Shown: positions 41,697 through 57,515, counted from the stretch's first letter. The stretch: 64,000 nt of DNA from Halobacteriovoraceae bacterium (GCA_963719505.1 CAVRCF010000001.1:1-64000); one strand, 5' to 3'. The notes: generated by a model not told the origin, from the sequence alone. A program made the numbers and translations.

Positions 41697-42305
41697 TTAT
41701 TGAAGTGGTAGTGAAACACCGAAAACCACTGAAGAATAACTATTTCTTAAAGAAAAGTTAGTCTCAACGTTTCCAACAAGATTTTCCATTCCTGCAATAT
41801 TTAATCTACCCGTGATACCAGCAGCTAAAGCAGTTGAAGTCTCATATGTATTTTCGTCTGTGTTTAAACCAACTTGAACTGGTAAAGATAAGAATGGGAA
41901 AGCTTCTCTTCCCCAAAAAGCAAAACCTTTTGAGATAATTGGAGCGACTCCAAAAGAGTTTACTCTATCATCATTAATTCTAGCTGTTTCAAGAAGGGCT
42001 TTAACAGAAATTCTTGGCTGTCTTCCATAATCTGGGATGATTTGAAAATCTGCACCAGCAAAGAGTCTATTTTCTCTTTCACCATCAGTAATTCCAAAAC
42101 CTGCGTCAAAGTTTACCGCTTCATTAAGTCTGTTGAAATATCTAGCTTCGATCCCAGCTCCCGCACCATTAGTGTTGTAACTTGTGAACTCAGTTGTAAT
42201 AACTTGTTTTCTTATTTCGAAAGGGTGAGTTGAAACACCGACTGTAGTTGCTGTTGCAGCGCCTGTAATCAAAAGTGCGCCTAATGCCATGCCTAATCTT
42301 CTCAT
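41697..42305 (-). CDS. Hypothetical outer-membrane beta-barrel protein
   Basis: GAGG RBS, signal peptide, alternating beta-strand pattern. Confidence 0.65.
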   Translation of the reverse strand: MRRLGMALGALLITGAATATTVGVSTHPFEIRKQVITTEFTSYNTNGAGAGIEARYFNRLNEAVNFDAGFGITDGERENRLFAGADFQIIPDYGRQPRISVKALLETARINDDRVNSFGVAPIISKGFAFWGREAFPFLSLPVQVGLNTDENTYETSTALAAGITGRLNIAGMENLVGNVETNFSLRNSYSSVVFGVSLPLQ

Positions 42306-42497
42306 AATAACCTCTTCTCCCACTGGGAAATGTTCTCAATTGTTTGCTAGTCATAGTCTAAAGAAATCGCCATGGGACGTCAATTTTAGAATGGATTTTA
42401 GTCGGGATTGCCGCACAGCAAAGTCTTCAATTTCCTTCAAGTTTAGGTTGACGACTAAGGGGGCTATAATCTATAACACTAATACTGAAATTTCTGC

Positions 42498-42574
42498 GGT
42501 GGGCGTAGTTCAGTTGGTAGAGCAGCAGATTGTGATTCTGTTTGTCGTGGGTTCGAGCCCCATCGTCCACCCCA
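42498..42574 (+). tRNA. tRNA-His (anticodon GTG)
   Basis: G-1, acceptor GTGGGCG/CGTCCAC, D-arm AGTTGGTAGAGC, anticodon arm GCAGA-TTGTGAT-TCTGT, GTTCGAG T-loop, encoded CCA. Confidence 0.97.
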
Positions 42575-42606
42575 TTTTTCAGCATCATTTTATCGAATGC
42601 TTTCAA

Positions 42607-42932
42607 CCCAAATCCGCGAGAATCTTTTCCACTGCTCTGACAATATCCCAAATCCGCGAGAATCTTTTCCACTGCTCTGACAATATTTTTTTCATTCGGC
42701 TCATTTTGAGTTCGCTGGTCCATAGAGGTCGCATAGTTGCGCCTTTTTTTTTGCTCTAGCTCTTTTTTTTCAATTCGGCTCATTTTAAACCCAAATCCGC
42801 GAGAATCTTTTCCACTGCTCTGACAATATTTTTTTCATTCGGCTCATTTTGAGTTCGCTGGTCCATAGAGGTCGCATAGTTGCGCCTTTTTTTTTGCTCT
42901 AGCTCTTTTTTTTCAATTCGGCTCATTTTAAA
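42607..42932 (+). repeat. Nested tandem repeats of the IS1380 terminus (40 bp + 143 bp + 143 bp)
   Basis: Units start at 42607, 42647 and 42790, each with the same first 40 bp; 42647-42789 and 42790-42932 are identical. Confidence 0.9.
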
Positions 42933-43228
42933 TCGCTATCTTTTTTTCCAACATCAAAATTTTCCGCGAGTAAACTCAAAACTCTCTTCAAAAAGCTCCC
43001 AGGTACTTTTTCATCTACTTATTTTGTCGCCAAAACAGCCATTCCCAAACCTTTATTCAAAAGTTGTCCCCTACTTCATTTCCATTCTCTATTTTCCTCC
43101 GATAAAAACACAACCTTTCTTCTCGAGCGTATGTTTTAACTACTCAAAGACGTACTCAAGGCGCACGTCTGCCTTGGTGGCAGTAGTTCAAGCTGGTTTA
43201 CAATATTCATTTTTCAAAGAACACGCGC

Positions 43229-44599
43229 TCAGGTTTGTAAACTAAACTTAAACAATAAATTTTTCATAATCCTGTTAAGCACCACCTCCTGTTTAAAGTA
43301 AATTCTTAACTTTAGTTTCCGAGCACTTCGGATCAACTGCCCCGCAATATTTATGACATGACTTCTAACACTCTTTGAAAAATATCCAAGCTGTTTTACA
43401 CGAATCCTTTCTCCACTTTTTCTATCTCGAACTGTTCGCCACTTCTCTTCCATGCAAAAAGAAATTACTCTCGTTAAATTATGTGCAAACGTTCCTACTA
43501 ATCCAAAAATTTTATTCGCTCTCAAACGACGACAAGGAAAGTTTAAAAAATCAAAGCCGTACTTTTGCTCTCGAATATAGCTCTCTGCTGTTGCTCTATC
43601 TTTATAAAACTCAAAAACTTCTTCATTGTTCATCTCTGAAAAACCAATGTTTGTTATGATAGAATAATGTCTATAGTCGTGTTCTTCAGGATTGTAATTC
43701 TTAAAGAGGTCTCGAGCCTCATTGATATCATCTACGCTCTTTCGGGCTCTAATAAAAACGACTCGCATCTCCCCTAAGCTTTTAATTGGGTAATGAGACA
43801 TCGCTATTTCACACTCTTTTGACTTGAAAAACTCAAGTTCTGTCTTCTCCCAATTCAACATATTTCGATTCTTCTTTCTAACATATCGACTTATATTATC
43901 CCTAAGAACTATTGCAAACTTTGCTCCTTTGGCTTGAAGAGCTTTATAAACTTCTTGCTTTCCATATGCGGAGTCTGCTCTAAACCATCTTTCTAAATGA
44001 CTTGGACAATTCTTAAAAATTTCATGCACCCAGCGCTCAGCATCTTTACCCGAATGAGTATTTCCAGGACGAAGATCGAACAAATAACTAAATCCAAATT
44101 GATCATAAGCATTTTGAGAATCAAGGCACCACATATTTTTATAGTTCCACGCCATCCCTTCCATATTTTTTCCGTAATGTTCATGAGGCGTAGAATCCAT
44201 TGAAAGAATAAACTTTATATCATCTGGAAACATCAAAGCTCTAAGCTCAAAAGTTAGCTCAACTAAAAATTCCTGTAATTTTTCAGCATGTCTATTTCCA
44301 AATGACTTTAAAAAATCACCTTGAGTCCTAGCTGCAACCTTCCCAGTAAGTTCTGCAAACAATGGATCTTTATTTGAATTATCAATATCAGAAAGACAAT
44401 CATTTCCAACAACAAACGAATAAAGTAGAGATTTAAACTTATCTAATTGAGTTGGACCTATGTTTTTCTTTTTGCGGGGCATCTTAGATTTGAGTCTTTT
44501 ATCTAGTTTTAGTTGCTTCCAGAGCTCTTCAAATAAAAATAGACCAGAATGAGAAGAGAATGTTTGAGAAGTTGATTCAATTTTGATAGTTTTGTACAT
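43229..44599 (-). CDS. IS1380-family (DDE_Tnp_1_4) transposase
   Basis: SSHSGL, SMDST, DLRPGNTHS, FRADSA, YKDRATAESYIREQKYG, AHNL. Confidence 0.88.
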   Translation of the reverse strand: MYKTIKIESTSQTFSSHSGLFLFEELWKQLKLDKRLKSKMPRKKKNIGPTQLDKFKSLLYSFVVGNDCLSDIDNSNKDPLFAELTGKVAARTQGDFLKSFGNRHAEKLQEFLVELTFELRALMFPDDIKFILSMDSTPHEHYGKNMEGMAWNYKNMWCLDSQNAYDQFGFSYLFDLRPGNTHSGKDAERWVHEIFKNCPSHLERWFRADSAYGKQEVYKALQAKGAKFAIVLRDNISRYVRKKNRNMLNWEKTELEFFKSKECEIAMSHYPIKSLGEMRVVFIRARKSVDDINEARDLFKNYNPEEHDYRHYSIITNIGFSEMNNEEVFEFYKDRATAESYIREQKYGFDFLNFPCRRLRANKIFGLVGTFAHNLTRVISFCMEEKWRTVRDRKSGERIRVKQLGYFSKSVRSHVINIAGQLIRSARKLKLRIYFKQEVVLNRIMKNLLFKFSLQT

Positions 44600-44913
44600 G
44601 GCAGTTCTTTTGCTAAAAAGCTTTTTTGGTTTGTTTTTTTTTGTTTGGCGATAAAAAGATATCAAAACAAAAAAGCTTTTTCTTTATGCAGGGCCGTAAA
44701 AAAAACACTTTTTTTTCAATTTTTGGGTGAATTTATCAAAATGATGAAAAGCCTTATTACGACTACTTGGAACGCACGATATTAGGTATCATCGTGCGCG
44801 GTTACGTTTCAACATACTTTCAACTATTACTAATCACTTACAAACACGTTGTGAGAAACTATCTAGGTCGAAGTCTTATACCTTTCAACTCATTCCATAT
44901 TATTTCACGAATA

Positions 44914-44944
44914 TGACTGATTTCTGACTGACCCTTGACTGACT
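44914..44944 (+). repeat. Three TGACTGA direct repeats at 11-bp period, candidate integrase arm-type sites
   Basis: TGACTGATT (44914), TGACTGACC (44925), TGACTGACT (44936). Confidence 0.6.
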
Positions 44945-45262
44945 TCTTAAAATCGAAATTGCGGATTGTTAACCTTCAATTAATTTTCTGCGGCGTTTTA
45001 CCCCCCATTCAAGAAGCAAGGTCACCTTTAAAAATAGTTTTACTATTTATTTACTCATGTAAATTTTATTAGAAGGCTGTTCAAATACCTTTCTCTATAT
45101 GAAATATTTAAATTAGAAGAAGGATGTTCTGAAAAAAATAAAGTTTACTTATAAAACCCAAAGTTTCTAATAGACTATGAATTCAGTTCTTTATGACCAA
45201 TCAGTCTTAGAAATGTCACATTCAGTTCTCAGTGTAGATTTTTTATGGAGTAACTAAGCAAT

Positions 45263-45559
45263 TTACATAAGAGCTCTTAATATCCACCCTGAACCATGCC
45301 ACAAAGCAGAGCTAACAAGAGGGAATATAAAGATCAATATAATTAAAATACCTAACCCTTCGCTTACCTTATATCTCTTAGGGACTTTACCTGTCGCATA
45401 AATAATTAACACTATTGCTCCAACAGTAGAAATAAAGCCCCTGAAGATACTTACTAACATTTCCACATTTAAATTATTAGATAGAAAAAGCACAAACGAT
45501 AGTAAAACGACGAGAGCCGCAATACTTATAAGCCCATCTTTAATATCTTTGGATTTCAT
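45263..45559 (-). CDS. Small 3-TM membrane protein
   Basis: 98 aa with three hydrophobic segments. Confidence 0.55.
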   Translation of the reverse strand: MKSKDIKDGLISIAALVVLLSFVLFLSNNLNVEMLVSIFRGFISTVGAIVLIIYATGKVPKRYKVSEGLGILIILIFIFPLVSSALWHGSGWILRALM

Positions 45560-45627
45560 TATTGCTTAAGTAGTGATATCAAAATCAACCTTGAAATTTG
45601 TATAAACATAATTATCAGTCTCTCGGT

Positions 45628-45867
45628 TTAAGCAGCTGAATTTTCGCTTAACAGCTTTTTACCAATTGGTGAATTAGTTGGGACAAGAGTCTGACTGTCA
45701 CAAGCTCTACAGGCTTTATGTCGACTTGTCAGTCTCCAAATAGAGTAAATTACTCCCGGTATAATCATCATGATCCATAAAAAAATCTCAATTAAAAGGC
45801 TACCCTTGGTAATTGTTTTTGGTTTCCCAACAGTTCCGCAAGCTGAGCAAATTAATTCGTTAGCCAT
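45628..45867 (-). CDS. LITAF-like zinc-ribbon membrane protein
   Basis: TAGGAG RBS; CSAC, hydrophobic hairpin (IIPGVIY), CRAC. Confidence 0.7.
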   Translation of the reverse strand: MANELICSACGTVGKPKTITKGSLLIEIFLWIMMIIPGVIYSIWRLTSRHKACRACDSQTLVPTNSPIGKKLLSENSAA

Positions 45868-45898
45868 AAAGTCTCCTAATTAAGTTTTTGTTAATTAC

Positions 45899-45925
45899 TG
45901 CTCGGCTTAGAAATAAACACCTTTA
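45899..45925 (-). promoter_or_regulatory. sigma28-type promoter
   Basis: Minus strand TAAAG-N14-GCCGAGCA upstream of ATG 45867. Confidence 0.5.
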
Positions 45926-45977
45926 GTAACTTTCCAATAATTAAGAAAATGCTTTGGCCCCCAATTCAGTAGACACT

Positions 45978-46852
45978 TTAATTAGCACTCCGGTACTGGA
46001 GTGGACTCATCATCTTTAATGCTGAATGTGGTGCTATTTCATTATAATCCGCAAACCACTCTGGCAACATTTTTAAAACTGTTTCAGCATCCTTACAGTC
46101 TGCGAGATAAGCATAATCTCTTTTGATAGTGTGAACGAAAGATTCTGCCATTCCATTTGAAGAAGGGCTATATGGAGCTGTATAACATGTCAGAAGCCCT
46201 AAGTCTCTGGCCGCATTACGTGTGATGTTTGCTCGATAAATTGTTCCTCTATCTGTTAGCCATTGAATTTTATGTGGCGTCTCAACATCCTTAAATCTAT
46301 TTAAGACTGACTCGCTCATCAAATCTCGAATATCTGTTGCTTGAAGTGGTCGATCTTTGGCCACAAAACTTATTGCTTCCCTGTCCTTACAATCTAAGCT
46401 GAAAGCAACGTAAACTTTTTCTCCGTTAAAGCACTGAAGCTCAAATCCATCAGAGCACCAACGAGTATTTGAATGAAGAGTCATTACCTTTCCAGTTCCA
46501 GGATGCTTTTTTCTTGATGGATATTTTTTAAACAATAAATCGTTCATATCCATAACCCTATATATTCTTTTGCGATTAACAATCGCTTTGTTATGAAGAA
46601 CTCTTTCTCTATTAAGCATCGCTGTAATCCTCTTATATCCGTACGTTGGGCGTTTCTCTTTTAACTCCTTTATGGATTCTAATATTTCAGCATCATCTTT
46701 TTTCCTATATCTTTTCATTTCTAAGCCTTTTGATTTTTTATAAAAAGCTGCCCTTGATACTTTTAAATATCTACAGACGAGACTTACCTTGAATCGTTTT
46801 AACTTAACGATTTCTTTGGCAGCTTCTACTTTTCTTTTTTGGGATTTTTTTT
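45978..46852 (-). CDS. IS3 OrfB (DDE), reached by programmed -1 frameshift
   Basis: After TTT-A8 (46845-46855) the -1 frame reads ...SLVCRYLKVSRAAFY...YGYKRIT...WCSD...LTDRG...NGMAESF. Confidence 0.85.
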
Positions 46853-47158
46853 AAAGATCTCTACCGCTTCATTCAGAATTTCTTTTTCTAAAGAAAGGTC
46901 CCCGACAATCTTTTTGAGTCTTCGGATTTCTTCTTTTTGCTTTTCATTTTCTGAAATTAGCTCTGATTGAGAATGATTCATCTTTGGATTTTTGTCTGAC
47001 ATCTGTCTTTTCCATTGAGCTAGAGTTACTGGGTGTATGCCATGTTTTGTGGCAATACTGATCATTGAATTCTTTTGATCAAAGTACTCTGCTAAGATAG
47101 CACATTTTTGTTCTTTGCTAAAATGCTTACGTTTTTTCGGTGACTTAGTAGTCGTCAT
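46826..47158 (-). CDS. IS3 OrfA (HTH + leucine zipper)
   Basis: RKHFSKEQK, HTH, EIRRLKKIVGDLSLEKEIL. Confidence 0.85.
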   Translation of the reverse strand: MTTTKSPKKRKHFSKEQKCAILAEYFDQKNSMISIATKHGIHPVTLAQWKRQMSDKNPKMNHSQSELISENEKQKEEIRRLKKIVGDLSLEKEILNEAVEIFKKNPKKEK

Positions 47159-47254
47159 AACTTCCCCTTATTGGTTGGAAAAGTGTCTACTTGAAAAGGG
47201 GGTTACAAACAAAAAATTAATATCACTTTTACTGCAAAGCCCCGATAAGTAGCT

Positions 47255-47476
47255 ATGTTTAATAATTTTAAAGAAGTCATCAATTCATTAATAAAACGAG
47301 TCGACCACAATCAAGAAATTATTGAAAGCCAACAGGAGTTGATTCTCAAACTACAACAGCAGCTTGAGAAACTCAGAGGTGATTTAGTCTCAAATTCAGA
47401 GGAAATTAAACACCTCACGTTAATCTTAGAGAACCCTCATTTATTTATTAACCCTTTAATTGATAAAAAATCATAG
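47255..47476 (+). CDS. Small coiled-coil hypothetical protein
   Basis: 73 aa Gln/Glu/Leu heptads; CCCGATAA 6 nt before the ATG. Confidence 0.5.
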   Translation: MFNNFKEVINSLIKRVDHNQEIIESQQELILKLQQQLEKLRGDLVSNSEEIKHLTLILENPHLFINPLIDKKS

Positions 47477-47685
47477 TTGCTAAACAGACTCTAAAAAACA
47501 ATATTTTAAGTTTCACTTTAACACTAGAGAGTTAGTGCTTTGGAGAAATATATCTAGAGCGAAAGGTCTAAAGTAGGCAAATCAAAAAATTATAGTGAGT
47601 CCAAGCGGGCTGATGAACCGTGTGACCGTCTAATACATTACTTTGTATATAGCCACAAAACACGTTGAAATTAATTTATCTTAAG

Positions 47686-47712
47686 TAAAGCCTTACCAGT
47701 AAGTTCCGAAGA
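47686..47712 (+). promoter_or_regulatory. sigma28-type promoter
   Basis: TAAAG-N14-TCCGAAGA upstream of GGAGG RBS and ATG 47751. Confidence 0.45.
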
Positions 47713-47750
47713 GCTAATTATCTAATCTTTACAATTACTATGGAGGACAA

Positions 47751-48752
47751 ATGTTCTGGAAAAAAAAGAAACATAATGTTGAGCTTGAGCAAGCTGTCAA
47801 TGAAGTCTTAGTAGAGGCATTTGGTGGAGATATATTTGAAGTTAATAGCAAGCACATAGAAGCTATTATTGATAAAGCAAAGTTTAGCAACTCCCCCTTG
47901 CTTATCAAATTCCTTAAACTAAATTCTAAGAGCTATGCTAATGATTACAGCATTTACTTTGAATCAAAAGAAAGTCATGTAAGGCACCTTGTTATGAAAG
48001 AGGCTTGTTTATGCGAACAAGCTCACAACAGAGCAATTTCAATAAATAACCAAACATTGGAGATACAGCGAAAACTAGAATTAACTGAGGACTTCCAACT
48101 AAGTACGTCAGCTGACCAAACTTCACTAGAAAATGAAGCTCTTGATAGTTTCTCCAAGAGCCTAGGTAAATACACTTTTAATACTGGTGAATGCAAAGAG
48201 TATATAAAGGCATATTCTGAGGTTGAAAGCTTTTGGGGTACGGAAGAGCATAAGATCATTATTTCAAAACTAAAGGATGTAAACTTTAAGGTTTTTGACC
48301 TTGTGTTTGAACTCTTTGATAATGATCCAGTTGACTTGTCTCCACAACTTATTAAAGCGGGGTCATATATGGCCGAAGAAGCTAAAAAAGCTACAAAGAG
48401 TGGATGGGTAAAAAGAGGAATTGTTGATATCTCTGATAAAGAGTGGCTAAGCAAAAAGCTCAAAGTTGGAGAAATTAAAGAGATTCTTAAGTCTAAAGGC
48501 TTAACAGCTAAGGGAAAAAAAGATGACCTTCTGGTTACACTTACCCCTTCACTATCAATAGATGATCTTAGCAACTATATTGCCTTAAGAGATGTGTATA
48601 AAGTAAATGATGACATCCTATCAGAACTCGAATGGATCAAAGTAGCAAAGATGTATAATTACTCTAATGCTAGTGTCCAACTCATTCAGATCCACCTTAA
48701 CAATATGATTGACTCATTTATTGACTCGGAGGAAAGCAAGAAAGTTGCTTAG
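47751..48752 (+). CDS. SAP-domain-containing hypothetical protein
   Basis: GGAGG RBS; KLKVGEIKEILKSKGLTAKGKKDDLLVTL matches the SAP motif. Confidence 0.7.
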   Translation: MFWKKKKHNVELEQAVNEVLVEAFGGDIFEVNSKHIEAIIDKAKFSNSPLLIKFLKLNSKSYANDYSIYFESKESHVRHLVMKEACLCEQAHNRAISINNQTLEIQRKLELTEDFQLSTSADQTSLENEALDSFSKSLGKYTFNTGECKEYIKAYSEVESFWGTEEHKIIISKLKDVNFKVFDLVFELFDNDPVDLSPQLIKAGSYMAEEAKKATKSGWVKRGIVDISDKEWLSKKLKVGEIKEILKSKGLTAKGKKDDLLVTLTPSLSIDDLSNYIALRDVYKVNDDILSELEWIKVAKMYNYSNASVQLIQIHLNNMIDSFIDSEESKKVA

Positions 48753-48911
48753 AAAGTCAATTCGACCAACAAGATAAATGGACGATACTGTGATCAAAGC
48801 TTTAACAATGCAAAGAATAACTTCAATATTCTAATGAAGTAACGATGGCTTAGGCTGCTTTAATTGGCCTATATATTGCTTCTATTAAGATATCTATACG
48901 AAGGGGAATAT

Positions 48912-49343
48912 ATGAAATTTATTAAAGGTCTTTTTTCAAATTTTAAACAAACGGATGAGGAAAAGCTTAAAAAAGTCGAAGCTGCAATCAAGCCTCAGGT
49001 TGATCAGTACTTAAGTGATGCATTTGTATTATTAATGCCTATCGTTGCAAAATGTAACAAAAGCGAGCTTCCTAAAACTACCACTTCTTATGATTTATAT
49101 TGCTATTGGAGGACTTTGAGCCAAAAGAAAGTTAATGAAAGCCTTTCTTCCATTACAAAGCAAGTATTGGACTTTGGACTCGACCAAGCACTTTATAGCG
49201 TAGACTTAATTATACTGGCGACTTTAAGTGATACCAAGTTGAATAGCAGCTTAAAAACAGAAATTATTCATAAATCCTTACCAATACTTGGAGTAAAAGC
49301 TAAAGACTTCAATGATTTTATAAATATTTTAAATGTAGCCTGA
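48912..49343 (+). CDS. Hypothetical protein
   Basis: AAGGGG RBS before ATG 48912. Confidence 0.6.
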   Translation: MKFIKGLFSNFKQTDEEKLKKVEAAIKPQVDQYLSDAFVLLMPIVAKCNKSELPKTTTSYDLYCYWRTLSQKKVNESLSSITKQVLDFGLDQALYSVDLIILATLSDTKLNSSLKTEIIHKSLPILGVKAKDFNDFINILNVA

Positions 49344-49419
49344 GAATAATAAGCCTAGAGAGTTAAAATTAATCATTAATTATGCTTAAGGTTTTATCAC
49401 TTCACAGCAAGTTAGTAGT

Positions 49420-49447
49420 AAAGTCTAAAGTAGACTCTTTAGACTTT
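49420..49447. repeat. Perfect 11-bp inverted repeat AAAGTCTAAAG-N6-CTTTAGACTTT
   Basis: Read directly; intergenic upstream of 49565. Confidence 0.7.
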
Positions 49448-49564
49448 TAATAAATTTATGGAAGCTAAGTCAATCTTAATGCTCCATTACCTATAATGTA
49501 TAAAGACTATGTAATCCTTTCCTCTGTTCTTCAAAGTATATATAAATTCAGTTATTTATAAATC

Positions 49565-50398
49565 ATGCGAGAAAATAGCAAGACTTTACCATTAATTAAC
49601 GCCATCAAGATTTCTGAAGGTTTTACAGATCTACATAATGACTCCAACTCCTACTTGCATTGTATTATTGAGTGTTGTTTTAAGCTAGAAGTAAGTCTGT
49701 ACGTTTACACTAATGCTTACTTTAGAAGAGTTGACGATGACGACTGTGGAATTATAAATGAATATTCAGAGGAAGTTCAATTCCCACTCGAAAGTGGGGG
49801 CTTTAAATATATGAGGAAAGCACTTTACGCTTTAAATAGATTAGCAATCTTTGAAATTGCCCACAGGAAAATGCCTACCTTTGGGTTTGTAGATCTTTGG
49901 AGTGATGCTTTCATAGGAAAAACCATTACAAGTCAGAGGGTTGAGCCTTTTACAGGCATTTTGAATCTTAATGGAAAGCTAGGTATTCCATACTGTATAA
50001 GCACTAAGAAGCTTCAAAACTTTGAGTTCAGCTTGAATGATCTGTATATAAACATTAAAGATGTAGATAAAGTACTTTTAGAACTCAAAATCACTAAGAG
50101 TAGCCCCACTTTGTCGCTAGAAACCCAATCTACAGTTCCCACAGAGAACAATATCAAGCTAAAGGATGCCATTATTCATACCCTCCTTACACTAATTCAA
50201 TCTGATGCGAACGAAGAAAACTTAAGCATGAACTCTCATATAAGTACCGTTATAACTGACAGTTCTAAGAAAATTCAAGCAAGTAAAATCGCTGACTTGG
50301 TCAACTCAAATGCTATTAAGTATTTTGCGAACAAAGATCAATTTAAGTCATCAACCATAAGTAGAAAAATTAACAAGATATTGAAAGATTTCGAATAG
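49565..50398 (+). CDS. Hypothetical protein with possible C-terminal HTH
   Basis: 277 aa; C-terminal ASKIADLV...SSTISRKINK. Confidence 0.6.
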   Translation: MRENSKTLPLINAIKISEGFTDLHNDSNSYLHCIIECCFKLEVSLYVYTNAYFRRVDDDDCGIINEYSEEVQFPLESGGFKYMRKALYALNRLAIFEIAHRKMPTFGFVDLWSDAFIGKTITSQRVEPFTGILNLNGKLGIPYCISTKKLQNFEFSLNDLYINIKDVDKVLLELKITKSSPTLSLETQSTVPTENNIKLKDAIIHTLLTLIQSDANEENLSMNSHISTVITDSSKKIQASKIADLVNSNAIKYFANKDQFKSSTISRKINKILKDFE

Positions 50399-50487
50399 TC
50401 TGAATATTTATATATTTTAGAAAAATACCGTTTTTTTTATTTATTCAAATTTTAAAGACTAAGTTCCTCTCCAATCAAGGAGATGAA

Positions 50488-51393
50488 ATGAACCTCACAG
50501 CTATATTAAGCACTAAACTCACGTCAAAGAATATACAGCACTCTAATTATTCTGGCTTTATAGATAAGCTTGAATTGAATGCAAAAAGCTTAGAACTAAG
50601 TAAGAGTGACTTAATTTTGCATCTTAGATCTCAAAGTATTCTTTTTCAAGAAGCTTCATTTAGAAAGGGTGGCTTATGCTTAGAAATAACAACACCAATG
50701 AAAGTAAAGGTATACGCGAAGATAAACTATGTCTCTCAGTACATTTCTAAACTAATATTAAATCCAAGTTATTACGAAAACTACAAACAATTCTCTTCAG
50801 ATGCTTTATCTCTGTTCGGAAAGATTTCAACTATTGAATTACTTCCAGTGACTAGGCTTGATAAGTCATTAGATATTGCTTGTTCCTATGAACTAGTATC
50901 AAGAGGATTTGATATCAAAAATAAGAGGTCAGCTAATGCTTATCAATACAGCTCTGGCATAAATACTGGGATTGATATAGGTAAAACTCCAGAAGTAATG
51001 AAACTTTATGATACTTCCCTTAAAGCAAAACTCTCCTTTCCTTGTACTAGGCTAGAGGCATGCCTTACTCGCAATAAAATAAACATAGATAATATCTTTG
51101 AACTTCGACAGCTTTATAACAAAAACTCTAATTATGTTGACCATACATTTTCTAAAACTTCTTTTAACGACATTGAGTTTAGTAATACTAAATCTGAATC
51201 AACCACTAAACTCAGTATTCTATGTGATCACCTCCCCTACCTCTATGTTAGATGCAGGCTTAATCATCACGGTAACTTCCGTAGGGACTATGCAAAACTT
51301 CACATTTTAGTACCTTGGAGAGCGCAACCATCAATCATATTCAACACAGCAATGAGAAAATTTTTCAATGATAGTGCTTCGGGGAGGCAATAG
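50488..51393 (+). CDS. Rep_trans-like rolling-circle initiator/relaxase
   Basis: VTRLDKSLD, TGIDIG, KLYD, TRLE follow the Rep_trans order RxDxAxD, TxYxG, xYDK, RxE; AAGGAG RBS. Confidence 0.6.
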   Translation: MNLTAILSTKLTSKNIQHSNYSGFIDKLELNAKSLELSKSDLILHLRSQSILFQEASFRKGGLCLEITTPMKVKVYAKINYVSQYISKLILNPSYYENYKQFSSDALSLFGKISTIELLPVTRLDKSLDIACSYELVSRGFDIKNKRSANAYQYSSGINTGIDIGKTPEVMKLYDTSLKAKLSFPCTRLEACLTRNKINIDNIFELRQLYNKNSNYVDHTFSKTSFNDIEFSNTKSESTTKLSILCDHLPYLYVRCRLNHHGNFRRDYAKLHILVPWRAQPSIIFNTAMRKFFNDSASGRQ

Positions 51394-51599
51394 TGGCTAA
51401 TATGAAGAAGATCTTTGAAATTCAAAAATGGATGACTACAAAGGAAGCTGCTAATTATCTAAGAATGACTGAGAATGCATTTAGAATCTATGCTTCACGA
51501 TACAAGCTTGATGCTTACACATTGGGTGAAAAATCAGTTAGATATAAGACTTCCGACCTAGATAGACTCATGACCCTAAAAACTAGGAGTCACAAATGA
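51393..51599 (+). CDS. Excisionase-like HTH_17 protein
   Basis: WMTTKEAANYL...VRYKTSDLD; translationally coupled between rep and int. Confidence 0.8.
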   Translation: MANMKKIFEIQKWMTTKEAANYLRMTENAFRIYASRYKLDAYTLGEKSVRYKTSDLDRLMTLKTRSHK

Positions 51600-52738
51600 C
51601 TATCATTAAAAAGAAAAACACGATTGGAGAAACTTACTTTCTCATTCGAGTTCAGTTGCGTTCAAAGATTCAACCTCATATTAGAATACAAAAACAAACT
51701 ACTCTTAAGGGCAAATTAGTTAATGCTAAAAAGGCTAAGCGTAGAGAACAAGAGCTGACTTATACCTGTATGGAGGAACTTAAGAAGCGAGAAGGAAGTG
51801 ATCTCTCATTTCAAGAGTTAATTGACCTTTGGTATTCCTATAAAGTCAGTGAAGAATTTATTACTCTAGAGACTGTTGGTGATTACTATAGAGCTTTACA
51901 GAAGTGGTGTTTCTCAATTTTAACAAAGCCATGTAACGAGATTGCAACTTCTGATGTGAAAGTTATTTTAAAAATGCAAAAAGATGAAGGTATCTCTAGA
52001 AGCTTTCGAAGAAAGTTTAAATCTATGATCAATAACGTCTATAAGTGGGGATTTGAAGAGGGATATCTTCATTCAACTAAATTCTCACCCACTGTGGGAA
52101 TTCAACTTGAAAGACGTGAAGAGAAAAAGCCAGAAATTTTAACCTTACAGCAAACAAGAGAGTTCTTAAATGCTGCTCGGACACTTGAACACCCATGGTA
52201 TCCAGTTTGGGCCTTTGCAATTCTAACAGGTGCACGAAATGGTGAGTTATATGCTCTAAACAAAAATGATGTTGATCTTGAAAATAATAAAATTATAATT
52301 TCGAAATCATTCAACAATAGGCGAGGCGAAATCAAGTCTACAAAAGCCGGTTATTATAGGACGGTTCCTATCAACCCTGAGCTAAAAGAATTGATTCTAG
52401 AGCTTAATAGGGCCAATCTAGACAGTGATTTTTTATTACCTCGACTATCTGGATGGAACAAAGGCTGCCAAGCACAAGTTCTAAGAACATTTCTTACTGG
52501 AATTAATCTACCAAGCGTGAAGTTTCATACATTGAGAGCATGCTTTGCAACTTTGTTACTTCAACAAGGCAAAGCACCCGCAGTAATAATGAAGATTTGT
52601 GGCTGGAGAGATCTAAAGACAATGGAACGTTATATTAGACTTGCAGGTGTTGATGAAAAAGGTGCAACAGACTCACTGAAAGTTCTTCCTCTTAAATCTC
52701 TGGACGAAGAATATTGTTTAAACTTCCCACAAAGATAG
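51596..52738 (+). CDS. Tyrosine recombinase / integrase
   Basis: TGARNGE (R), STK (K), FHTLR (HxxR), CGW, MERY (Y); ends ~100 bp before an att core. Confidence 0.93.
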   Translation: MTIIKKKNTIGETYFLIRVQLRSKIQPHIRIQKQTTLKGKLVNAKKAKRREQELTYTCMEELKKREGSDLSFQELIDLWYSYKVSEEFITLETVGDYYRALQKWCFSILTKPCNEIATSDVKVILKMQKDEGISRSFRRKFKSMINNVYKWGFEEGYLHSTKFSPTVGIQLERREEKKPEILTLQQTREFLNAARTLEHPWYPVWAFAILTGARNGELYALNKNDVDLENNKIIISKSFNNRRGEIKSTKAGYYRTVPINPELKELILELNRANLDSDFLLPRLSGWNKGCQAQVLRTFLTGINLPSVKFHTLRACFATLLLQQGKAPAVIMKICGWRDLKTMERYIRLAGVDEKGATDSLKVLPLKSLDEEYCLNFPQR

Positions 52739-52835
52739 TAACCCACAGCAACAAAAGTCGGTAAAGGTGGGCTCTTTGGCTAACAACAGTCAATAGCTCG
52801 ACTTAAGACATTGTTTTTGATAAGGTTACGAAGAA

Positions 52836-52848
52836 CACCCCATTTTTT
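52836..52848 (+). repeat. att core copy 2 (tRNA-His 3' end)
   Basis: CACCCCATTTTT identical to 42568-42579. Confidence 0.8.
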
Positions 52849-52884
52849 AAAAGCCTTGCGTCTAACCGCCAAGGCTTTTTTTTT
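52849..52884. terminator. Terminator hairpin with GTCTAACC loop
   Basis: AAAAGCCTTG...CAAGGCTTTT followed by T-run. Confidence 0.75.
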
Positions 52885-53014
52885 GCCTACAATTTCGTTG
52901 GGTTAGACGGGCGGTTAAAAATCCTCGTAGGGAAACGAATGACGGGCCATGTGAATCAGGCGAACCGTTAACCACCACTTTGTTATTGACTAATATGGAG
53001 TGTATAAAGGAAAA

Positions 53015-53743
53015 ATGAAAACATTAATCTACACTTCAATGCTTCTATTGCTCATCAGCTGTAACAACTCAACAATGCTATCAGTAAGTAATTGGGCAAT
53101 TGCAATTGCTGCCCTAATTGGATCTTTAGGTGGAGTCGGAAAACTATATTATTCGAATGCTATAAGCAAAGAACAAGAAAAACCCAATCAAAGCAAAATT
53201 CACGAAATAAAATCTGAATATAAAGAATGGATGTTGAATAAAGATTCGCCCATTATCCTAGAGTTAGTTGATCTCCAGTTAAACTTTGGTTTCGAGGCCC
53301 AACTTAATAAAGGCGATCAAATAAACTTTAAAAAATATTTAGACTGGGATATTGATGGAAAGAAACCATTTTTACAATTCAAGGAAGACTGGGACTCAGG
53401 GAAAATTAATCTTGCAGATACTAGTGGAGCACTTCCTATAGTAGGAAAGAAATTTCTTGTAAAAGATATTCATAAGCAATGGGTTTATAGAGATGTCGAT
53501 GACATGGTTGTTACATATAATATTATAAAGCGATATATACTTACTAACACAAATGCACTTCCAAACTCAAAAACAATCAAAGACTTCCAAACGAAAAAAG
53601 TAAAAAGAGTTTTCAATGAAGAAGACTTAGCTCAATTTGATATTCAAGGTAAAAAAATATTTACCTCTAAAGATGAGATTCCAGAGCAGAGTGGAGAAAT
53701 TTTACACTTTAGACTTAAACCTACAATGAAACCAATTAACTAA
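53015..53743 (+). CDS. Hypothetical lipoprotein / membrane protein
   Basis: AAGGA RBS, lipobox-like LLISC followed by a second hydrophobic segment. Confidence 0.6.
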   Translation: MKTLIYTSMLLLLISCNNSTMLSVSNWAIAIAALIGSLGGVGKLYYSNAISKEQEKPNQSKIHEIKSEYKEWMLNKDSPIILELVDLQLNFGFEAQLNKGDQINFKKYLDWDIDGKKPFLQFKEDWDSGKINLADTSGALPIVGKKFLVKDIHKQWVYRDVDDMVVTYNIIKRYILTNTNALPNSKTIKDFQTKKVKRVFNEEDLAQFDIQGKKIFTSKDEIPEQSGEILHFRLKPTMKPIN

Positions 53744-53767
53744 TCTTCTCTTCTCTTCTCTTCTCTT
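53744..53767. repeat. (TCTTC)4-TCTT microsatellite between convergent stops
   Basis: Read directly. Confidence 0.8.
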
Positions 53768-53769
53768 AT

Positions 53770-54447
53770 CTAACCAAAAACAATTGATGGTTCAAATTTC
53801 TCTCCTAACCCCCCAAGGTTTGCAATACATTCTTCAATCTTACTCTTCAGCCTAGGATCATTTTTAAATACCCCCTTTAAAATATGTTCGGCCATATGAA
53901 CATGTTTTGACTTTACACTAAGGAAATGTTTTGCAATCTCTAGCAAAATCTCATCATTTGTTACTAAGTCAACGCTATTCTTAATGGCATCATACAGGAG
54001 CAAATAATCCTCAGGAGAAGGAGCGGAAGTTGATTTGTTTGATCCCTGGAAAATATTTTCTTCTCTCCATTCCTTTTGTAATTGCTTCCTATAATCATCA
54101 AAAACAATTCTCTTCGCTTTAAAGCCATCGTCTCTTAGATTTGCTAAACTTAAAGAGGTCAAATTATCTTTGATAAAACGTTCTATTTTAGGAAAAGTCA
54201 CTTCACCAACATCATCAAAAAAAGAAGGATATCCTCTTTTTTTAGGTCTAGGAGTAAGATTTTTTTCTAGATGGAAAGTTGCAACATCTGACTCAAACTC
54301 TTCCAATACAATTGGATGAAATTCAAGTAACCCCATACCTGGAATGATGATATTGTCTGCAGGTATAATTTCTTTTGATATAAAAAAATAAAGTTTATAT
54401 ACAGAACATGTGTCAGTTAAAAGTATTTCTATTTTTTCAGAGCCCAC
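53770..54447 (-). CDS. PIN-domain nuclease-like protein (putative toxin)
   Basis: LLTDTCSV, PIVLEE, SPEDYLLL, LVTND give the PIN acidic tetrad layout; overlaps the upstream gene. Confidence 0.7.
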   Translation of the reverse strand: MGSEKIEILLTDTCSVYKLYFFISKEIIPADNIIIPGMGLLEFHPIVLEEFESDVATFHLEKNLTPRPKKRGYPSFFDDVGEVTFPKIERFIKDNLTSLSLANLRDDGFKAKRIVFDDYRKQLQKEWREENIFQGSNKSTSAPSPEDYLLLYDAIKNSVDLVTNDEILLEIAKHFLSVKSKHVHMAEHILKGVFKNDPRLKSKIEECIANLGGLGEKFEPSIVFG

Positions 54448-55676
54448 GATGCAAGCTCCTTACTATTAAACTCTTCACTTGACCAAATAGCCTTCAGAAC
54501 ATTTACTTCATGTCTTTTCAAAGAAAATAAATTTGCATAATCAATAGGACTGATTCCACCATTCACAAGTTTATTTCTCAAAGATGTATAGACAGGATAA
54601 TCTCTTGGCTCTTCCCTAATGATAGTATCAAATAATTTTTTGTGTTCTTCAAAAGATGAGTGATCAATATTTATTCTTCCAATTTCTGAAAGTGATTCTG
54701 TATTATCGTTAAAGTAATCATCATACTTTGATGTAAGATCTTGATAAAGATTACTACCTTCAGTTAGTAATTTATTATCAACTAGAGCATTGGCCAATCC
54801 TGATGGAGCCCAAGTTCCATCATCATTGTATTTTTTAATTACAAAATTAACTACATCTTCAGAAGACTTACCAATTTTTCTCAATCTCCCTCCATCGAGA
54901 AAAATATCCTTTAAATATTCTTCAGGGTAAACTAAATCTCCAACAGTTCTGTCGATGAACTTTTCAAGGTCAATTCCTCTTTCAAATAATCCATCTAAAA
55001 TTATATGAATAATCTCATGAAGCAAATCAAAGAAGACAGATGATCGTCTCCTGTCCGCATCAATAAGTATTGCGAACTCACCATCCCTGCTAAATAAAAC
55101 TGCTGACTTTCTATCACCTTCATCGACTTCAAAATCTAAACCAATGCTTTTAAATGACATATAATAGCAATGAACACTTAATAGGTCTAAAATATAGTCA
55201 TGAACAAAGTTTCTCTTAATTGGAAGACTAGGAGGAATAAAAAAGAAACCTCTTATTATCTTTGCAGCCAATTTAAAAGATTCATCACTCTTAATGTTTA
55301 TACTAGATAACTGCTCTCTAATACCATTAAAATCAAAATTGGATTTCTTCATATAGTCGCTGGCAAGCGTCTCGAAAACAAACTCAGTTCTCTCTCTTAC
55401 CTCAGGTGCAACCTCGCACTTATCCATTTCTCTATGATTTCTAGTTCTATAGTGAAATGCCAATGGCGCCCTTCCCATTAAACAATCAATATCATCCCGG
55501 CTCATCTCAAAAATATCTAGCATTTGAGCGACTCTTGAGTGTGGTATTTTTTCAACACCCCTAGTCCATTTTGAAATAGCTGAAGGGTCAACGCCAAGCT
55601 GGCGAGCCAACTCTCTTCCTGCAATTCCTTTAGAATCAATTAACTGGCTTAAAAACTTTCCTGACCTATAAATCAC
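54429..55676 (-). CDS. XRE-HTH + ImmA/IrrE Zn-metallopeptidase fusion (putative antitoxin/sensor)
   Basis: RELARQLGVDPSAISKW HTH, FHYR linker, FDLLHEIIH (HExxH), downstream E in LEKFID. Confidence 0.8.
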   Translation of the reverse strand: MIYRSGKFLSQLIDSKGIAGRELARQLGVDPSAISKWTRGVEKIPHSRVAQMLDIFEMSRDDIDCLMGRAPLAFHYRTRNHREMDKCEVAPEVRERTEFVFETLASDYMKKSNFDFNGIREQLSSINIKSDESFKLAAKIIRGFFFIPPSLPIKRNFVHDYILDLLSVHCYYMSFKSIGLDFEVDEGDRKSAVLFSRDGEFAILIDADRRRSSVFFDLLHEIIHIILDGLFERGIDLEKFIDRTVGDLVYPEEYLKDIFLDGGRLRKIGKSSEDVVNFVIKKYNDDGTWAPSGLANALVDNKLLTEGSNLYQDLTSKYDDYFNDNTESLSEIGRINIDHSSFEEHKKLFDTIIREEPRDYPVYTSLRNKLVNGGISPIDYANLFSLKRHEVNVLKAIWSSEEFNSKELASWALKK

Positions 55677-55865
55677 TAAACAGTATCCTTTACTTTAAAC
55701 TCGTATTCACACACCTCTTCGGTTGATCATACCATTTACTCAATTTTTTATATAATTTCAATATTATATGGCATTTTATTTATCCTTGACACTAAATTTT
55801 ACTCAATTTTTAGTAATATCAACGTACTAGAGATAACTGCTCAACTTAAAGACACTACTTCTTAT

Positions 55866-56273
55866 TTAATTATTAGCTAATATCTGTTGAACCGACTTTG
55901 GTGACCATTTCGCTCTCTTCGTCTTAGTAGTCACCCCCATCACGTTTAAAACATCTGCGATTTTATGATAAGAAAACCCCTGTTCTCTCAACTCCTTGAT
56001 CTTCTCAATCACCTCTTGCTCTTTCTTGTGAACGATAATTTCTCGATCCTTAAACTTCTTCCCATAAGCAAGACCACGCTTTCTATTTTGAACTGTTCCT
56101 GGAACTCGAGTTTCAATTCCAAACTTCTTCATCTGTTTAGAAATAGTTTGACGGGCCACTCCAAACTCTACCGCCAGCTCATTTAGACTTCGCCTTTCTA
56201 CGACGTATTTTTGATATAAAGTCTCTTTATTTCGCCACTCATTTTTGACTGGTAATTGAAAGATATTAGACAT
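55866..56273 (-). CDS. HTH + serine-recombinase DNA-binding (Recombinase) domain protein, no catalytic domain
   Basis: SLNELAVEFGVARQTI HTH; AYGK...EQEVIEKIKELREQGFSYHKIADVLN..G...W.PKSVQQIL. Frame is open upstream to 56336 across the att core. Confidence 0.75.
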   Translation of the reverse strand: MSNIFQLPVKNEWRNKETLYQKYVVERRSLNELAVEFGVARQTISKQMKKFGIETRVPGTVQNRKRGLAYGKKFKDREIIVHKKEQEVIEKIKELREQGFSYHKIADVLNVMGVTTKTKRAKWSPKSVQQILANN

Positions 56274-56313
56274 TTGGACTTGGCGGTTGGACGGACTCCA
56301 ATAAGAAGGTCCA

Positions 56314-56324
56314 CCACCCCATTT
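56314..56324 (+). repeat. att core copy 3
   Basis: CCACCCCATTT identical to 42567-42577. Confidence 0.7.
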
Positions 56325-56349
56325 AAAACTTAACATCCTTCGGGATTTT

Positions 56350-56394
56350 AAATAGAAAGAGCCTAGGTCTAACCCACTTAGGCCTTTTTGTTTC
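56350..56394. terminator. Terminator repeat, copy A
   Basis: GCCTAGGTCTAACCCACTTAGGC + T-run; 43/45 identical to 57457-57501. Confidence 0.75.
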
Positions 56395-56443
56395 TGACAT
56401 TATAAAGTGTTTCAAATATTTCTCTTCATGTTAAACTTAGGGC

Positions 56444-56824
56444 ATGCAAGCAACATTCAATCAAAAAATTCTATTTTTGAAACTATTCACAATATCATTA
56501 ATAACATTCCTACTTTATGACACTGGAGAAAGAATATATTTAGGTATAACTGACGATAAGAAATCTGACATACTACTCTTTGTTACCTCAACCTGGAACT
56601 TAGTAGAGATTTTTGTTTTGATAAAGTTTGTTCTTTGTAGAATCTTTGCCCCTTCAAGAAAGGCTCTCCTCATCATTGGGGCCTTAAAACTTGCACTTTT
56701 TCTATTCGTGATAGATCTACTTATCAAAACTCCACTCATTACTCTTAGGGAGTTATTAATAATTACTGGTTTGCTTGTGTTTGGAAATTTAAACTACAGA
56801 AAATATTCTGATACCACAGAATAA
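56444..56824 (+). CDS. 4-TM membrane hypothetical protein (sole gene of module 3)
   Basis: 126 aa, four hydrophobic segments, between att copies 3 and 4. Confidence 0.55.
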   Translation: MQATFNQKILFLKLFTISLITFLLYDTGERIYLGITDDKKSDILLFVTSTWNLVEIFVLIKFVLCRIFAPSRKALLIIGALKLALFLFVIDLLIKTPLITLRELLIITGLLVFGNLNYRKYSDTTE

Positions 56825-56917
56825 TTATTATTTATTTCGATAGTTTAGCACTCAGTTAGGCTGCTTTTATCTAATTATCAACCAGTGGCAACAGATCTAA
56901 ATGTTAATGTCTGTCTT

Positions 56918-56947
56918 GGGTGGCATTTGCCACCCCATTTTTTTCAG
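56918..56947 (+). repeat. att core copy 4 with palindromic core (attP-like junction)
   Basis: GGGTGGCA-TT-TGCCACCC dyad then CATTTTTTTCAG, matching tRNA end CCACCCCATTTTTCAG. Confidence 0.75.
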
Positions 56948-57069
56948 TAATATTTTAGAATTCAAATTTCAAAGACTCAACTAATTTAAATCACTTACAT
57001 CACTCTTTAAATCTATTCGCCACTCAAAATCTTGTATCTTTCACACCATTTCACATCACGACTTCATCA

Positions 57070-57100
57070 GTACTGATTTTTGACTAACTACTGACTGACA
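57070..57100 (+). repeat. Second set of 11-bp-period arm-type repeats
   Basis: GTACTGATT (57070), TGACTAACT (57081), TGACTGACA (57092). Confidence 0.55.
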
Positions 57101-57218
57101 ATAAAAAAAGACATGTGTATATGAAGCATTCTAAATATGATAGACTAAATGAGAAATTCATATTAGTTTGCCTAGTGTGAATCGAATACTTGCATTGACA
57201 GGTATAATTGAGGAATCT

Positions 57219-57347
57219 ATGAAAAAAATATTAAATGCAATTCTTAAAACTATTGCTGACGGGACAACCATTCTATACGCTGGTTTTTCAATTAAAAACA
57301 TCAGAAAAGTGATCAAAGGTGAAAAAGAACCAATCGATAGTCTTTAA
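57219..57347 (+). CDS. 42-aa small protein (sole gene of module 4)
   Basis: GAGGA RBS, TATAAT upstream; MKKILNAILKTIADGTTILYAGFSIKNIRKVIKGEKEPIDSL; below the ORF-track cutoff. Confidence 0.5.
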   Translation: MKKILNAILKTIADGTTILYAGFSIKNIRKVIKGEKEPIDSL

Positions 57348-57407
57348 ATCAGATAGATTTAACTTAAAAGAATGTGGCAGGCTCGTCAAATGTATACCGC
57401 CTGCTTT

Positions 57408-57428
57408 GGGTGCCATATGCCACCCCAT
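57408..57428 (+). repeat. att core copy 5 with near-palindromic core
   Basis: GGGTGCCATATGCCACCCCAT, two mismatches to copy 4. Confidence 0.7.
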
Positions 57429-57456
57429 CAAAACATTAAGCATCTTAGGGTGAGTA

Positions 57457-57501
57457 AAATAGAAAAAGCCTAGGTCTAACCCACTTAGGCTTTTTTGTTT
57501 C
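57457..57501. terminator. Terminator repeat, copy B
   Basis: 43/45 identical to 56350-56394; also lies just beyond the stop of the convergent kinase gene. Confidence 0.75.
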
Positions 57502-57515
57502 AAATTATTGATATT

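Follow-up and report, generated by a model that had tools for sequence, protein, structure and literature searches.

The 3' end of the histidine tRNA gene (tRNA-His) of a Halobacteriovoraceae bacterium (GCA_963719505.1) probably anchors a stack of genomic islands bounded by attachment (att) sites, which would have inserted in succession and then decayed. This reading is drawn from the sequence of the first 64,000 nucleotides of contig CAVRCF010000001.1, hereafter the window; G000 denotes the source genome assembly, and C1, C3 and C5 its contigs. Four modules follow the tRNA gene (Table 1), of which modules 2–4 would be remnants resembling cis-mobilizable elements (CIMEs). The best-supported interpretation is that at least three unrelated element lineages accreted at this 3' end. 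Two unrelated recombinase families, tyrosine recombinases and large serine recombinases, have used the tRNA-His target.

The tRNA-His (GTG) is intact and is the only one that ARAGORN detected in the window, and no second tRNA-His was found in the 3.69-Mb assembly. Its last seven bases and the next T form the core CACCCCAT, with the first copy at 42568–42575. Five copies, all on the plus strand, start at 42568, 52836, 56315, 56931 and 57421. Shuffled windows contained 0.55 copies on average, and none of 100 shuffles reached five; the 3.69-Mb genome has 38 copies, spread over both strands. Five copies within 15 kb on one strand are a strong local excess. An earlier note on this DNA had described the same five copies as the boundaries of a tandem array with modules of about 10.3, 3.5, 0.6 and 0.5 kb. 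Our results bear out the positions, support the array, and give start-to-start spacings of 10268, 3479, 616 and 490 nt. Two further CACCCCA matches were rejected as chance occurrences: one at 60927 lies inside an open reading frame (ORF, 60666–61553) and one lies at G000 C1:64373, and neither is followed by a T-rich flank.

The locus has the features expected of an accretion array. It begins with an intact tRNA, whose 3' end recurs on the same strand at the bounds of each segment; a site-specific recombinase gene lies at a segment edge beside an att copy (the integrase at core copy 2); and relatives with an empty site exist (L118 and L119). Searching Rfam with 42000–58000 at E values up to 1 returned the tRNA genes and three chance-level matches (E 0.3–0.87, far below gathering), while at gathering scores three related loci gave tRNA genes only.

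The native flank of tRNA-His and its terminator

The uninterrupted site is apparent from the metagenome contigs L118 and L119. Their left flank is 82% identical to that of the window over 3.6 kb, and their tRNA-His is followed directly by sequence that is 91% identical to 57420–57509. In L120, a related island with excisionase (Xis) and integrase (Int) genes (~68% DNA identity) abuts a flank like T1', the sequence that follows core copy 5 in the window. Because the site before this flank is empty in L118 and L119 and occupied in L120, T1' is the native B' arm and 42575–57420 is inserted throughout, a stack of 14.85 kb between the end of tRNA-His (42574) and the native terminator flank (57429–57501). 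Comparison with L118 and L119 also shows that the small hairpin of T1' is degraded in the window. A second pair of empty and occupied sites is provided by G065 and G106, which belong to one genus, with an integrase 71% identical to that of the window. The array varies between relatives: the site is empty in L118 and L119, and in G002, a member of the same genus as our bacterium, the same module ends enclose a different gene.

To the right, synteny with L118 resumes only at about 67585 of G000 C1, beyond the window. The 10 kb after T1' (57510 to ~67585 of C1) are also variable, and no core copy bounds them. This region includes a minus-strand gene (57516–58589), whose 357-aa product contains part of a protein-kinase domain and gave weak matches in PADLOC (mad6, PD-T4-6, Stk2). 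Only fragments of this gene occur in G002, and the closest metagenome relative lacks the whole region.

Terminators with a GTCTAACC loop follow the core copies at 52836, 56315 and 57421. Similar sequence stands directly behind tRNA-His in G002, with 88% identity to 56314–56396 and 82% to 57420–57501. In many genera, tRNA-His or a core copy is followed by the same two-hairpin flank, consisting of a small UUCG-type hairpin and then a TAACCC-loop terminator. The TAACCC loop is invariant across many genera, and among 16 sequences eight of the ten stem pairs showed compensatory changes. In G000, the same loop type stands behind at least two other tRNA genes; it has no match in Rfam. By these comparisons, the GTCTAACC-loop hairpin is an ordinary stable-RNA gene terminator of this family. 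The TAACCC-loop hairpins read GTCTAACCCA or GTTTAACCCA. They lie at 52855–52877, 56361–56383 and 57468–57490 of the window, and elsewhere in G000 at C1:265220, C1:951715, C5:1261775 and C5:1263623.

The island of G106 opens with such a terminator, and the empty site of G065 has a different one. One possible explanation for the repeated terminators of the array is that a tyrosine-integrase island can arrive with a tRNA terminator of its own, as in G106. Direct repeats that flank small modules in G101 and G034 likewise consist of core plus terminator, and in G101 they are ~88 nt long, nearly identical and sharply bounded. Since the terminator is both family-wide and island-borne, the block of core plus terminator (T) is the att identity block of several element lineages rather than a reusable cassette signal.

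Origins of the module ends

Module 1 runs from a left arm with TGACTGA repeats through cargo, a 301-aa backbone gene, Xis and Int to a right arm. In the integrase, the R..HxxR..W..Y residues, which we take to be catalytic, align with XerD/XerC-like structures at the catalytic places. Its gene, with Xis upstream, ends 97 nt before core copy 2. The same backbone is found in the G106 island, with 42% identity for the 301-aa gene, 70% for Xis and 71% for Int. The right arms of both islands contain a common motif pair, TTTGGCT(A/G)A and then CAGTC, 57 nt before the core end. Several further ORFs of module 1 are of unknown family (Pfam, NCBIfam, PHROGs).

Two insertion sequences (ISs) lie within module 1. 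The larger one (~42604–44811) carries 143-nt terminal tandem repeats at 42647–42932, and BLAST against the genome found four more near-identical copies, terminal repeats included. These copies lie on C3 (two in tandem) and C5 (two) and are 98.6–100% identical, so this IS has recently been active. At one end of the element, the number of 143-nt (and ~40-nt) tandem repeats is variable. The second IS, of the IS3 family, has two near-identical copies on C5. The claim that module 1 encodes the only catalytic recombinase stands for site-specific recombinases (the integrase at 51596–52738), but two IS transposase genes are present there as well.

Because the larger IS intervenes, the TGACTGA-type repeats of module 1 (44914–44943) now lie 2.3 kb from the tRNA. 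With this IS taken out, the repeats of module 1 and those of module 4 (57070–57099) both lie 131–153 nt from the core. The left arms of module 1 (IS removed), of module 4 and of a module in the relative G088 align end to end with scores of 139–150, compared with means of 74–79 and a maximum of 104 for shuffled controls. All three have a TCAACTA..CACTTACA block at +37 to +39 from the core. Module 1 then has repeats in 11-nt phase at +131/142/153, module 4 has them at +142/153 and the G088 module at +144/155, and the G106 island has TGGCTGA three times, at +144/155/166. Over the whole window TGACTGAC is not enriched (44 occurrences, 38.8 expected), and only the two 11-nt-phased clusters matter. 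We infer that the integrase binds the TGACTGA repeats as arm-type sites, which would change together with it; the arm that holds them is the integrase-distal arm of the tyrosine-integrase island family. Since its attL is split by the 2.2-kb IS, excision of module 1 itself should be impaired. Since the island inserted, only a weak hairpin (42575–42603, −3.4 kcal/mol), in place of a strong terminator of the family type, separates the working tRNA-His from the IS.

The right end of module 2 is of a different kind. In G094, G036 and G076, islands of 10.4–13.2 kb begin with a minus-strand ORF of 513–516 aa whose stop abuts the tRNA end, and in G094 and G036 this protein has Resolvase and Recombinase domains. 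Homologues of the 136-aa gene at the end of module 2 sit just inside the distal junction (arm, core, terminator) in five relatives (G074, G094, G088, G036 and G076), always as the final gene of a serine-recombinase island at tRNA-His. The 'Recombinase' domain of the 136-aa protein is the DNA-binding domain of large serine integrases, and the protein may be a directionality or accessory factor. Its ORF was listed as 156 aa; to judge from the homologues, translation more likely starts at the conserved ATG with which 55866–56276 begins.

In the window, only this distal gene and the right arm of such an island were found, with no recombinase of ~513 aa abutting the tRNA. A tblastn search of G000 with the proteins of three relatives (E 1e-3) found no large serine recombinase either. 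Pfam, NCBIfam and PHROGs revealed no recombinase domain in the cargo region of module 2, nor anywhere in modules 2–4 apart from the non-catalytic 136-aa DNA-binding protein. Module 2 would therefore be the orphaned distal end of a serine-recombinase island, because its 136-aa gene and right end are homologous to those of such islands and the recombinase was not found. It appears composite, since its left part (terminator and 247-aa ORF) is unlike that family. The 225-aa and 415-aa genes of module 2 (53770–55676, minus strand) overlap, and the 415-aa protein has weak PADLOC matches to RmrA/PDC-M64; the pair may be defence or toxin-antitoxin-like island cargo.

Both ends of module 3 recur in G002, where the T1 side (56314–56396) is 88% identical over 83–84 nt and the right arm (56901–56942) 90% identical over 42 nt. 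The G002 module holds a different gene, for a 183-aa AAA_18 kinase, and beyond its second core lies another decayed island with a Fic gene. The 126-aa ORF of module 3 has one homologue, a metagenome protein with 83% identity, and a search with it in 236 other family genomes gave no match. Module 3 showed no remnant of an island backbone. Module 4 combines a left arm of the module 1 type with a dyad arm that is 86% identical to that of module 3 over 28 nt, and its 59-aa ORF has no detected homologue. The dyad at 56918–56935 has a 7-bp stem (−14.3 kcal/mol, z −2.7); the one at 57408–57425 has one mismatch (z 0.26). A reading of the dyad as an acceptor-stem minihelix of tRNA-His, or as a tRNA cut short, was set aside; the copy in G002 forms no hairpin. 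Core-overlapping dyads also precede the core behind intact integrases in G074 and G068 (46–48% identity to the integrase of the window), and the dyad arms are plausibly the integrase-proximal arms of lost islands. The motif pair of module 1 and G106 is missing from the right arms of modules 3 and 4, so that neither module is an obvious substrate for the module 1 integrase. Both have a core copy at each end, and module 4 has a complete left arm. As in CIMEs, no integration or transfer genes were found in modules 2–4.

All three kinds of module end that the earlier note distinguished are present, namely TGACTGA repeats, GTCTAACC-loop terminators and dyads. They do not follow one reusable grammar, however, because they derive from different lineages as a tyrosine-integrase arm, a serine-island end and a tRNA terminator. 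Nor is the description of the small modules as one-gene cassettes supported for module 4, whose 59-aa ORF is a doubtful gene.

The array can thus be pictured as follows. Elements would insert one after another at the tRNA-His 3' end, with CCACCCCA as the core, usually followed by T. Module 1 would be a tyrosine-integrase island enlarged by two IS insertions. Module 2 would have received its right end from the island family that a serine recombinase of ~513 aa integrates in relatives, and would since have lost the recombinase. Module 3 would combine a foreign copy of the tRNA terminator on the left with a dyad arm on the right, and module 4 would have kept the left arm of the module 1 island family next to a dyad right arm. 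Modules 3 and 4 may have arisen by internal deletion or may have entered as already-reduced elements, and we infer the order of the insertion events. The long direct repeats of core plus terminator could allow homologous recombination to delete or swap modules.

Several observations weigh against this explanation. Module 3 and the G002 module are alike at both ends but contain unrelated single genes, which is unexpected under vertical decay of one island. The left part of module 2 does not resemble a serine-recombinase island, so that the history of this module could be traced only in part; with the assembly 83.5% complete, a recombinase may have gone unseen. Furthermore, integrase-less modules of one or two genes recur in G002, G004, G034, G088, G101 and genus g32, which also fits active small elements, and some of them are flanked by nearly identical ~88-nt repeats (G101).

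Table 1. Features of the tRNA-His array in the window; where no basis is listed, the cell is left empty
Feature	Position	Strand	Basis or remark
tRNA-His (GTG), intact; attB of the array	42499..42574	+	ARAGORN
Module 1	42575-52835		tyrosine-integrase island, ~6.8 kb before two IS insertions
Module 1 left (integrase-distal) arm, proximal piece	42575..42603	+	severed from the remainder by IS
IS, DDE_Tnp_1_4 transposase 43229-44665	~42604..44811	-	Pfam and BLAST against genome
Distal piece of module 1 left arm: TCAACTATTACTAATCACTTACA block 44820-44842; TGACTGA repeats 44914-44943, three at 11-nt spacing	44812..44960	+	
IS3-family element: orfA 46826-47158, orfB 45978-46718	~45940..47221	-	
Island backbone gene, 301 aa, unknown family	50488..51393	+	42% to gene at equivalent place in G106 island
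Excisionase-like HTH_17 gene, 68 aa	51393..51599	+	
Tyrosine integrase, 380 aa	51596..52738	+	Pfam, NCBIfam, PHROGs
Module 1 right arm: TTTGGCTAA..CAGTCA motif pair (CAGTCA 52787-52792) and core copy 2	52739..52843	+	
Core copy 2	52836-52843	+	CACCCCAT match
Module 2	52844-56314		composite, no recombinase
Terminator hairpin, GTCTAACC loop; module 2 left end	52844..52884	+	
247-aa ORF (module 2 cargo), N-terminus MKTLIYTSMLLLLIS	53000-53743	+	
225-aa ORF (module 2 cargo)	53770-54447	-	no family
415-aa protein (module 2 cargo)	54429-55676	-	N-terminal XRE-type helix-turn-helix (HTH)
136-aa protein, HTH and 'Recombinase' DNA-binding domain	55866..56276	-	no catalytic domain
Serine-recombinase-type right arm and core copy 3	56277..56322	+	
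Core copy 3	56315-56322	+	CACCCCAT match
Module 3	56323-56930		small, integrase-less
T1: small UUCG hairpin and GTCTAACCCA-loop terminator; module 3 left end	56323..56394	+	
126-aa ORF (module 3 cargo)	56444..56824	+	hydrophobic by eye
Module 3 right arm: dyad GGGTGGCATTTGCCACCC 56918-56935 and core copy 4	56895..56938	+	
Core copy 4	56931-56938	+	CACCCCAT match
Module 4	56939-57420		490-nt miniature, integrase-less
Module 4 left arm: TCAACTAATTTAAATCACTTACA 56977-56999, TGACTGA-type repeats 57070-57099	56939..57100	+	collinear with left arm of module 1
59-aa ORF (module 4)	57168..57347	+	doubtful as gene
Module 4 right arm: imperfect dyad 57408-57425 and core copy 5	57395..57428	+	
Core copy 5	57421-57428	+	CACCCCAT match
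T1': native 3' flank (B') of tRNA-His	57429..57509	+	small hairpin degraded

Small modules in relatives and alternative explanations

We surveyed up to 20 kb downstream of tRNA-His in 43 relatives (729,429 bases; three loci with less than 3 kb available). These loci and the window together contain 26 copies of the final 8 nt of the tRNA on its own strand and four on the opposite strand. The longer motif CACCCCA[TC]T is found 23 times on the same strand and never on the opposite one, in 17 of the 43 relative loci. Homologues of the cargo of modules 2–4 were not found in the 43 loci, and PADLOC gave only weak HTH or kinase matches for this cargo.

Modules without a match to the integrase of the window occur in G002 (744 nt), G004 (1004 nt), G034 (1057 nt), G101 (1742 nt), G106 (202 nt), G006 (146, 151 and 2169 nt), G088 (1848 and 1019 nt) and G100 (296 and 2125 nt). 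The 1.85-kb module of G088 has a left arm of the module 1 type and a right arm ending in '..agaaCACCCCA'. Cargo of the small modules lies on either strand. Among the 29 genomes of genus g32, a right-arm motif of 22 nt occurs 13 times in eight genomes, compared with one control match, and every match lies on a contig that also gives tRNA-His or core-plus-terminator matches. G122 of this genus has four small modules in a row with diverse cargo and no integrase. The 1057-nt module of G034 is missing from G127, and its cargo recurs in G114 with 95% identity over 112 aa; some g32 cargo homologues recur at other array positions. The distal core of the G065 mini-module is decayed relative to that of G106, and in G114, G116 and G122 decayed cores stand beside intact terminators.

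The g32 arrays are those of L127 (G122, 3074–7768), L128 (G133), L124 (G116) and L125 (G114). Their modules have a conserved right arm of ~55 nt, GTGATAAA..TTTTGTATATGATTGTCTCC..CA.ATG plus core, and their cargo includes Fic, GNAT, MerR, Bro-N, SLT and a metallopeptidase/TPR protein. In the fetched arrays, the search for a cognate recombinase turned up C-terminal fragments of integrases (G122) and nothing else. By eye, the dyad arms of the window and G002 resembled the g32 arm, but an nhmmer profile of ten g32 arms without core found no match to them even at E 10, so that a right arm common to the family was rejected as unsupported and the arms are lineage-specific. Mini-modules of 200–300 nt, rich in G+C and with neither an evident gene nor an Rfam match, stand right after tRNA-His or a core copy in L078 (G106, 6462–6685), L084 (G065, 484–720) and L094 (G100, 19165–19479); that of G106 and G065 is common to two species of one genus.

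An alternative explanation might be that the small modules are working non-autonomous cassettes, which the integrase of module 1, alone or together with Xis, or another cellular integrase excises, re-inserts and reorders in trans at the tRNA-His core, in an integron-like array. We consider this unlikely. Modules 3 and 4 do have a core at both ends, and module 4 retains a complete left arm with its repeat cluster, but their right arms lack the motif pair that module 1 shares with G106, and the attL of module 1 itself is interrupted by 2.2 kb of IS. The same ends enclose different genes in G002 and the window; yet three or more lineages contributed the ends of the array, and the serine recombinase to which one of these is tied was not found in G000. 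The repeated occurrence in the family of small modules that have varied cargo and no integrase, and the differing positions of g32 cargo homologues, would also agree with cassette movement. However, a terminator opens each module, relatives have cargo in either orientation, no homologue of the 59-aa ORF was found, the integrase differs from the integron type, and the g32 arm profile misses the arms of the window and G002, which argues against a family-wide cassette site. The absence of the G034 module from the matching site in G127 and the nearly identical ~88-nt repeats around the G101 module are consistent with excision in trans, but RecA alone can lose modules via long direct repeats.

In a broader form of this idea, tRNA-His would anchor a real cassette array throughout this predatory family, in which integrases encoded elsewhere capture, excise and shuffle integrase-less miniatures of one or two genes in trans. 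Each miniature would consist of a tRNA 3' end and terminator on the left and a lineage-specific arm of ~45–55 nt on the right, and modules 3 and 4 would be two such units. We regard this as quite unlikely, because the same facts can be explained by homologous recombination between the repeats and by ascertainment, as only remnants that keep a core are seen.

It is very unlikely that the cores are now inert and that the locus varies mainly by homologous recombination, through deletion between core-plus-terminator repeats of 50–100 nt and allelic replacement after DNA uptake, with the tRNA, terminator and right arm as homology arms. Direct repeats of 70–90 nt with 80–99% identity do flank modules, the flanks of the G002 module match those in the window around different cargo, cores have decayed beside intact terminators in G114, G116 and G122, and the G065/G106 mini-modules are common within their genus. 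Nevertheless, recombination of this kind leaves the first arrival of the modules and their non-tRNA right arms unexplained, and intact integrases stand directly before right arm and core in the window, G106, G074 and G068. The strict strand bias and the positions of the copies point to site-specific integration as the origin.

That the repeats reflect a mere coincidence of G+C-rich terminator stems without mobile DNA can be dismissed: although the dyad at 56918 with its T run scores as an intrinsic terminator, this idea is refuted by the shuffled windows, the empty sites in relatives, the integrase and Xis adjoining one copy, and the 23 to 0 strand bias.

Relation to known systems

In integrons, cassettes are separated by attC sites and a common promoter lies beside attI. 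The tRNA-His array is similar in its short gene-sized units, its separators resembling recombination sites and the single tyrosine recombinase nearby. In contrast to integrons, it shows no attI/Pc arrangement, its separators are tRNA 3'-end copies and intrinsic terminators rather than attC, its units open with terminators and occur in either orientation in relatives, and the integrase, placed at the far end of the island that encodes it, is separated from the small modules by 3.6 kb and lies upstream of them. This integrase scores only 32.5 bits against the integron integrase model TIGR02249 (cutoff 265), over residues 307–356. The integron-like reading of the earlier note thus fails on the type of integrase, the separators, the upstream terminators and the cargo on either strand.

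Composite staphylococcal cassette chromosome (SCC) and pseudo-SCC elements at rlmH/orfX of staphylococci also consist of modules bounded by short direct repeats at the 3' end of a single gene, and some of these modules have no recombinase gene and rely on the recombinases of a neighbour. Compared with these, the target and the set of recombinases differ, and no resistance cargo was seen here.

The accretion of CIMEs was reportedly treated by Pavlovic in 2004 and Bellanger in 2011, the works that a review cites for it. Tandem island accretion at a tRNA, which the earlier note gave as known, matches the pattern of CIMEs and of Dehalococcoides islands, as far as the excerpted accounts of these systems go. 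In streptococcal elements of two integrative kinds, conjugative (ICEs) and mobilizable (IMEs), an att-flanked remnant without integration genes is joined by the next element, which integrates alongside it (excerpted account in PMC5704250). As in the arrays related to ICESt1/ICESt3 and IMEs, integration at a tRNA 3' end, decay and an order of attL, element, att, remnant and attR are proposed here (PMC5704250, same excerpt). Unlike the CIME arrays of that excerpt, the modules in the window lack genes for conjugation or mobilisation, two or more unrelated recombinase families have used one target, and the remnants are only 0.5–0.6 kb long; mobilisation in cis would be putative here.

Dehalococcoides carries tandem islands downstream of the single-copy stable-RNA gene ssrA, bounded by repeats of its 3' end (PMC3146451, in excerpt). 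A large serine recombinase of ~540 aa on the reverse strand beside attL is accompanied there by a small one of ~200 aa, and for 15 islands that lack an integration module, mobilisation in cis was proposed (same excerpt of PMC3146451). The G094 and G036 islands are similar, with a 513-aa recombinase and ORFs of 205–212 aa that by eye start like small serine recombinases. The tRNA-His system differs from the Dehalococcoides islands, so far as that excerpt describes them, in its target, in the tyrosine-integrase family that uses the same site, and in its shorter repeats (8–13 nt of tRNA), which are often extended by a terminator. In addition, the window holds only the distal end of such an island, and its serine recombinase was not found.

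Our findings thus place the locus within a known pattern of accretion and decay, and give concrete origins to what had been described as types of module end. Tyrosine and large serine recombinases target the same eight tRNA-His bases in many genera of a single family. Small integrase-less units with one or two genes recur at this site in several genera and show presence/absence polymorphism. Were they moved in trans, predatory bacteria would have in them a compact means of gene capture. If the cassette array were true, it would be an integrative-element counterpart of miniature inverted-repeat transposable elements (MITEs), or a tRNA-based analogue of integron cassettes.

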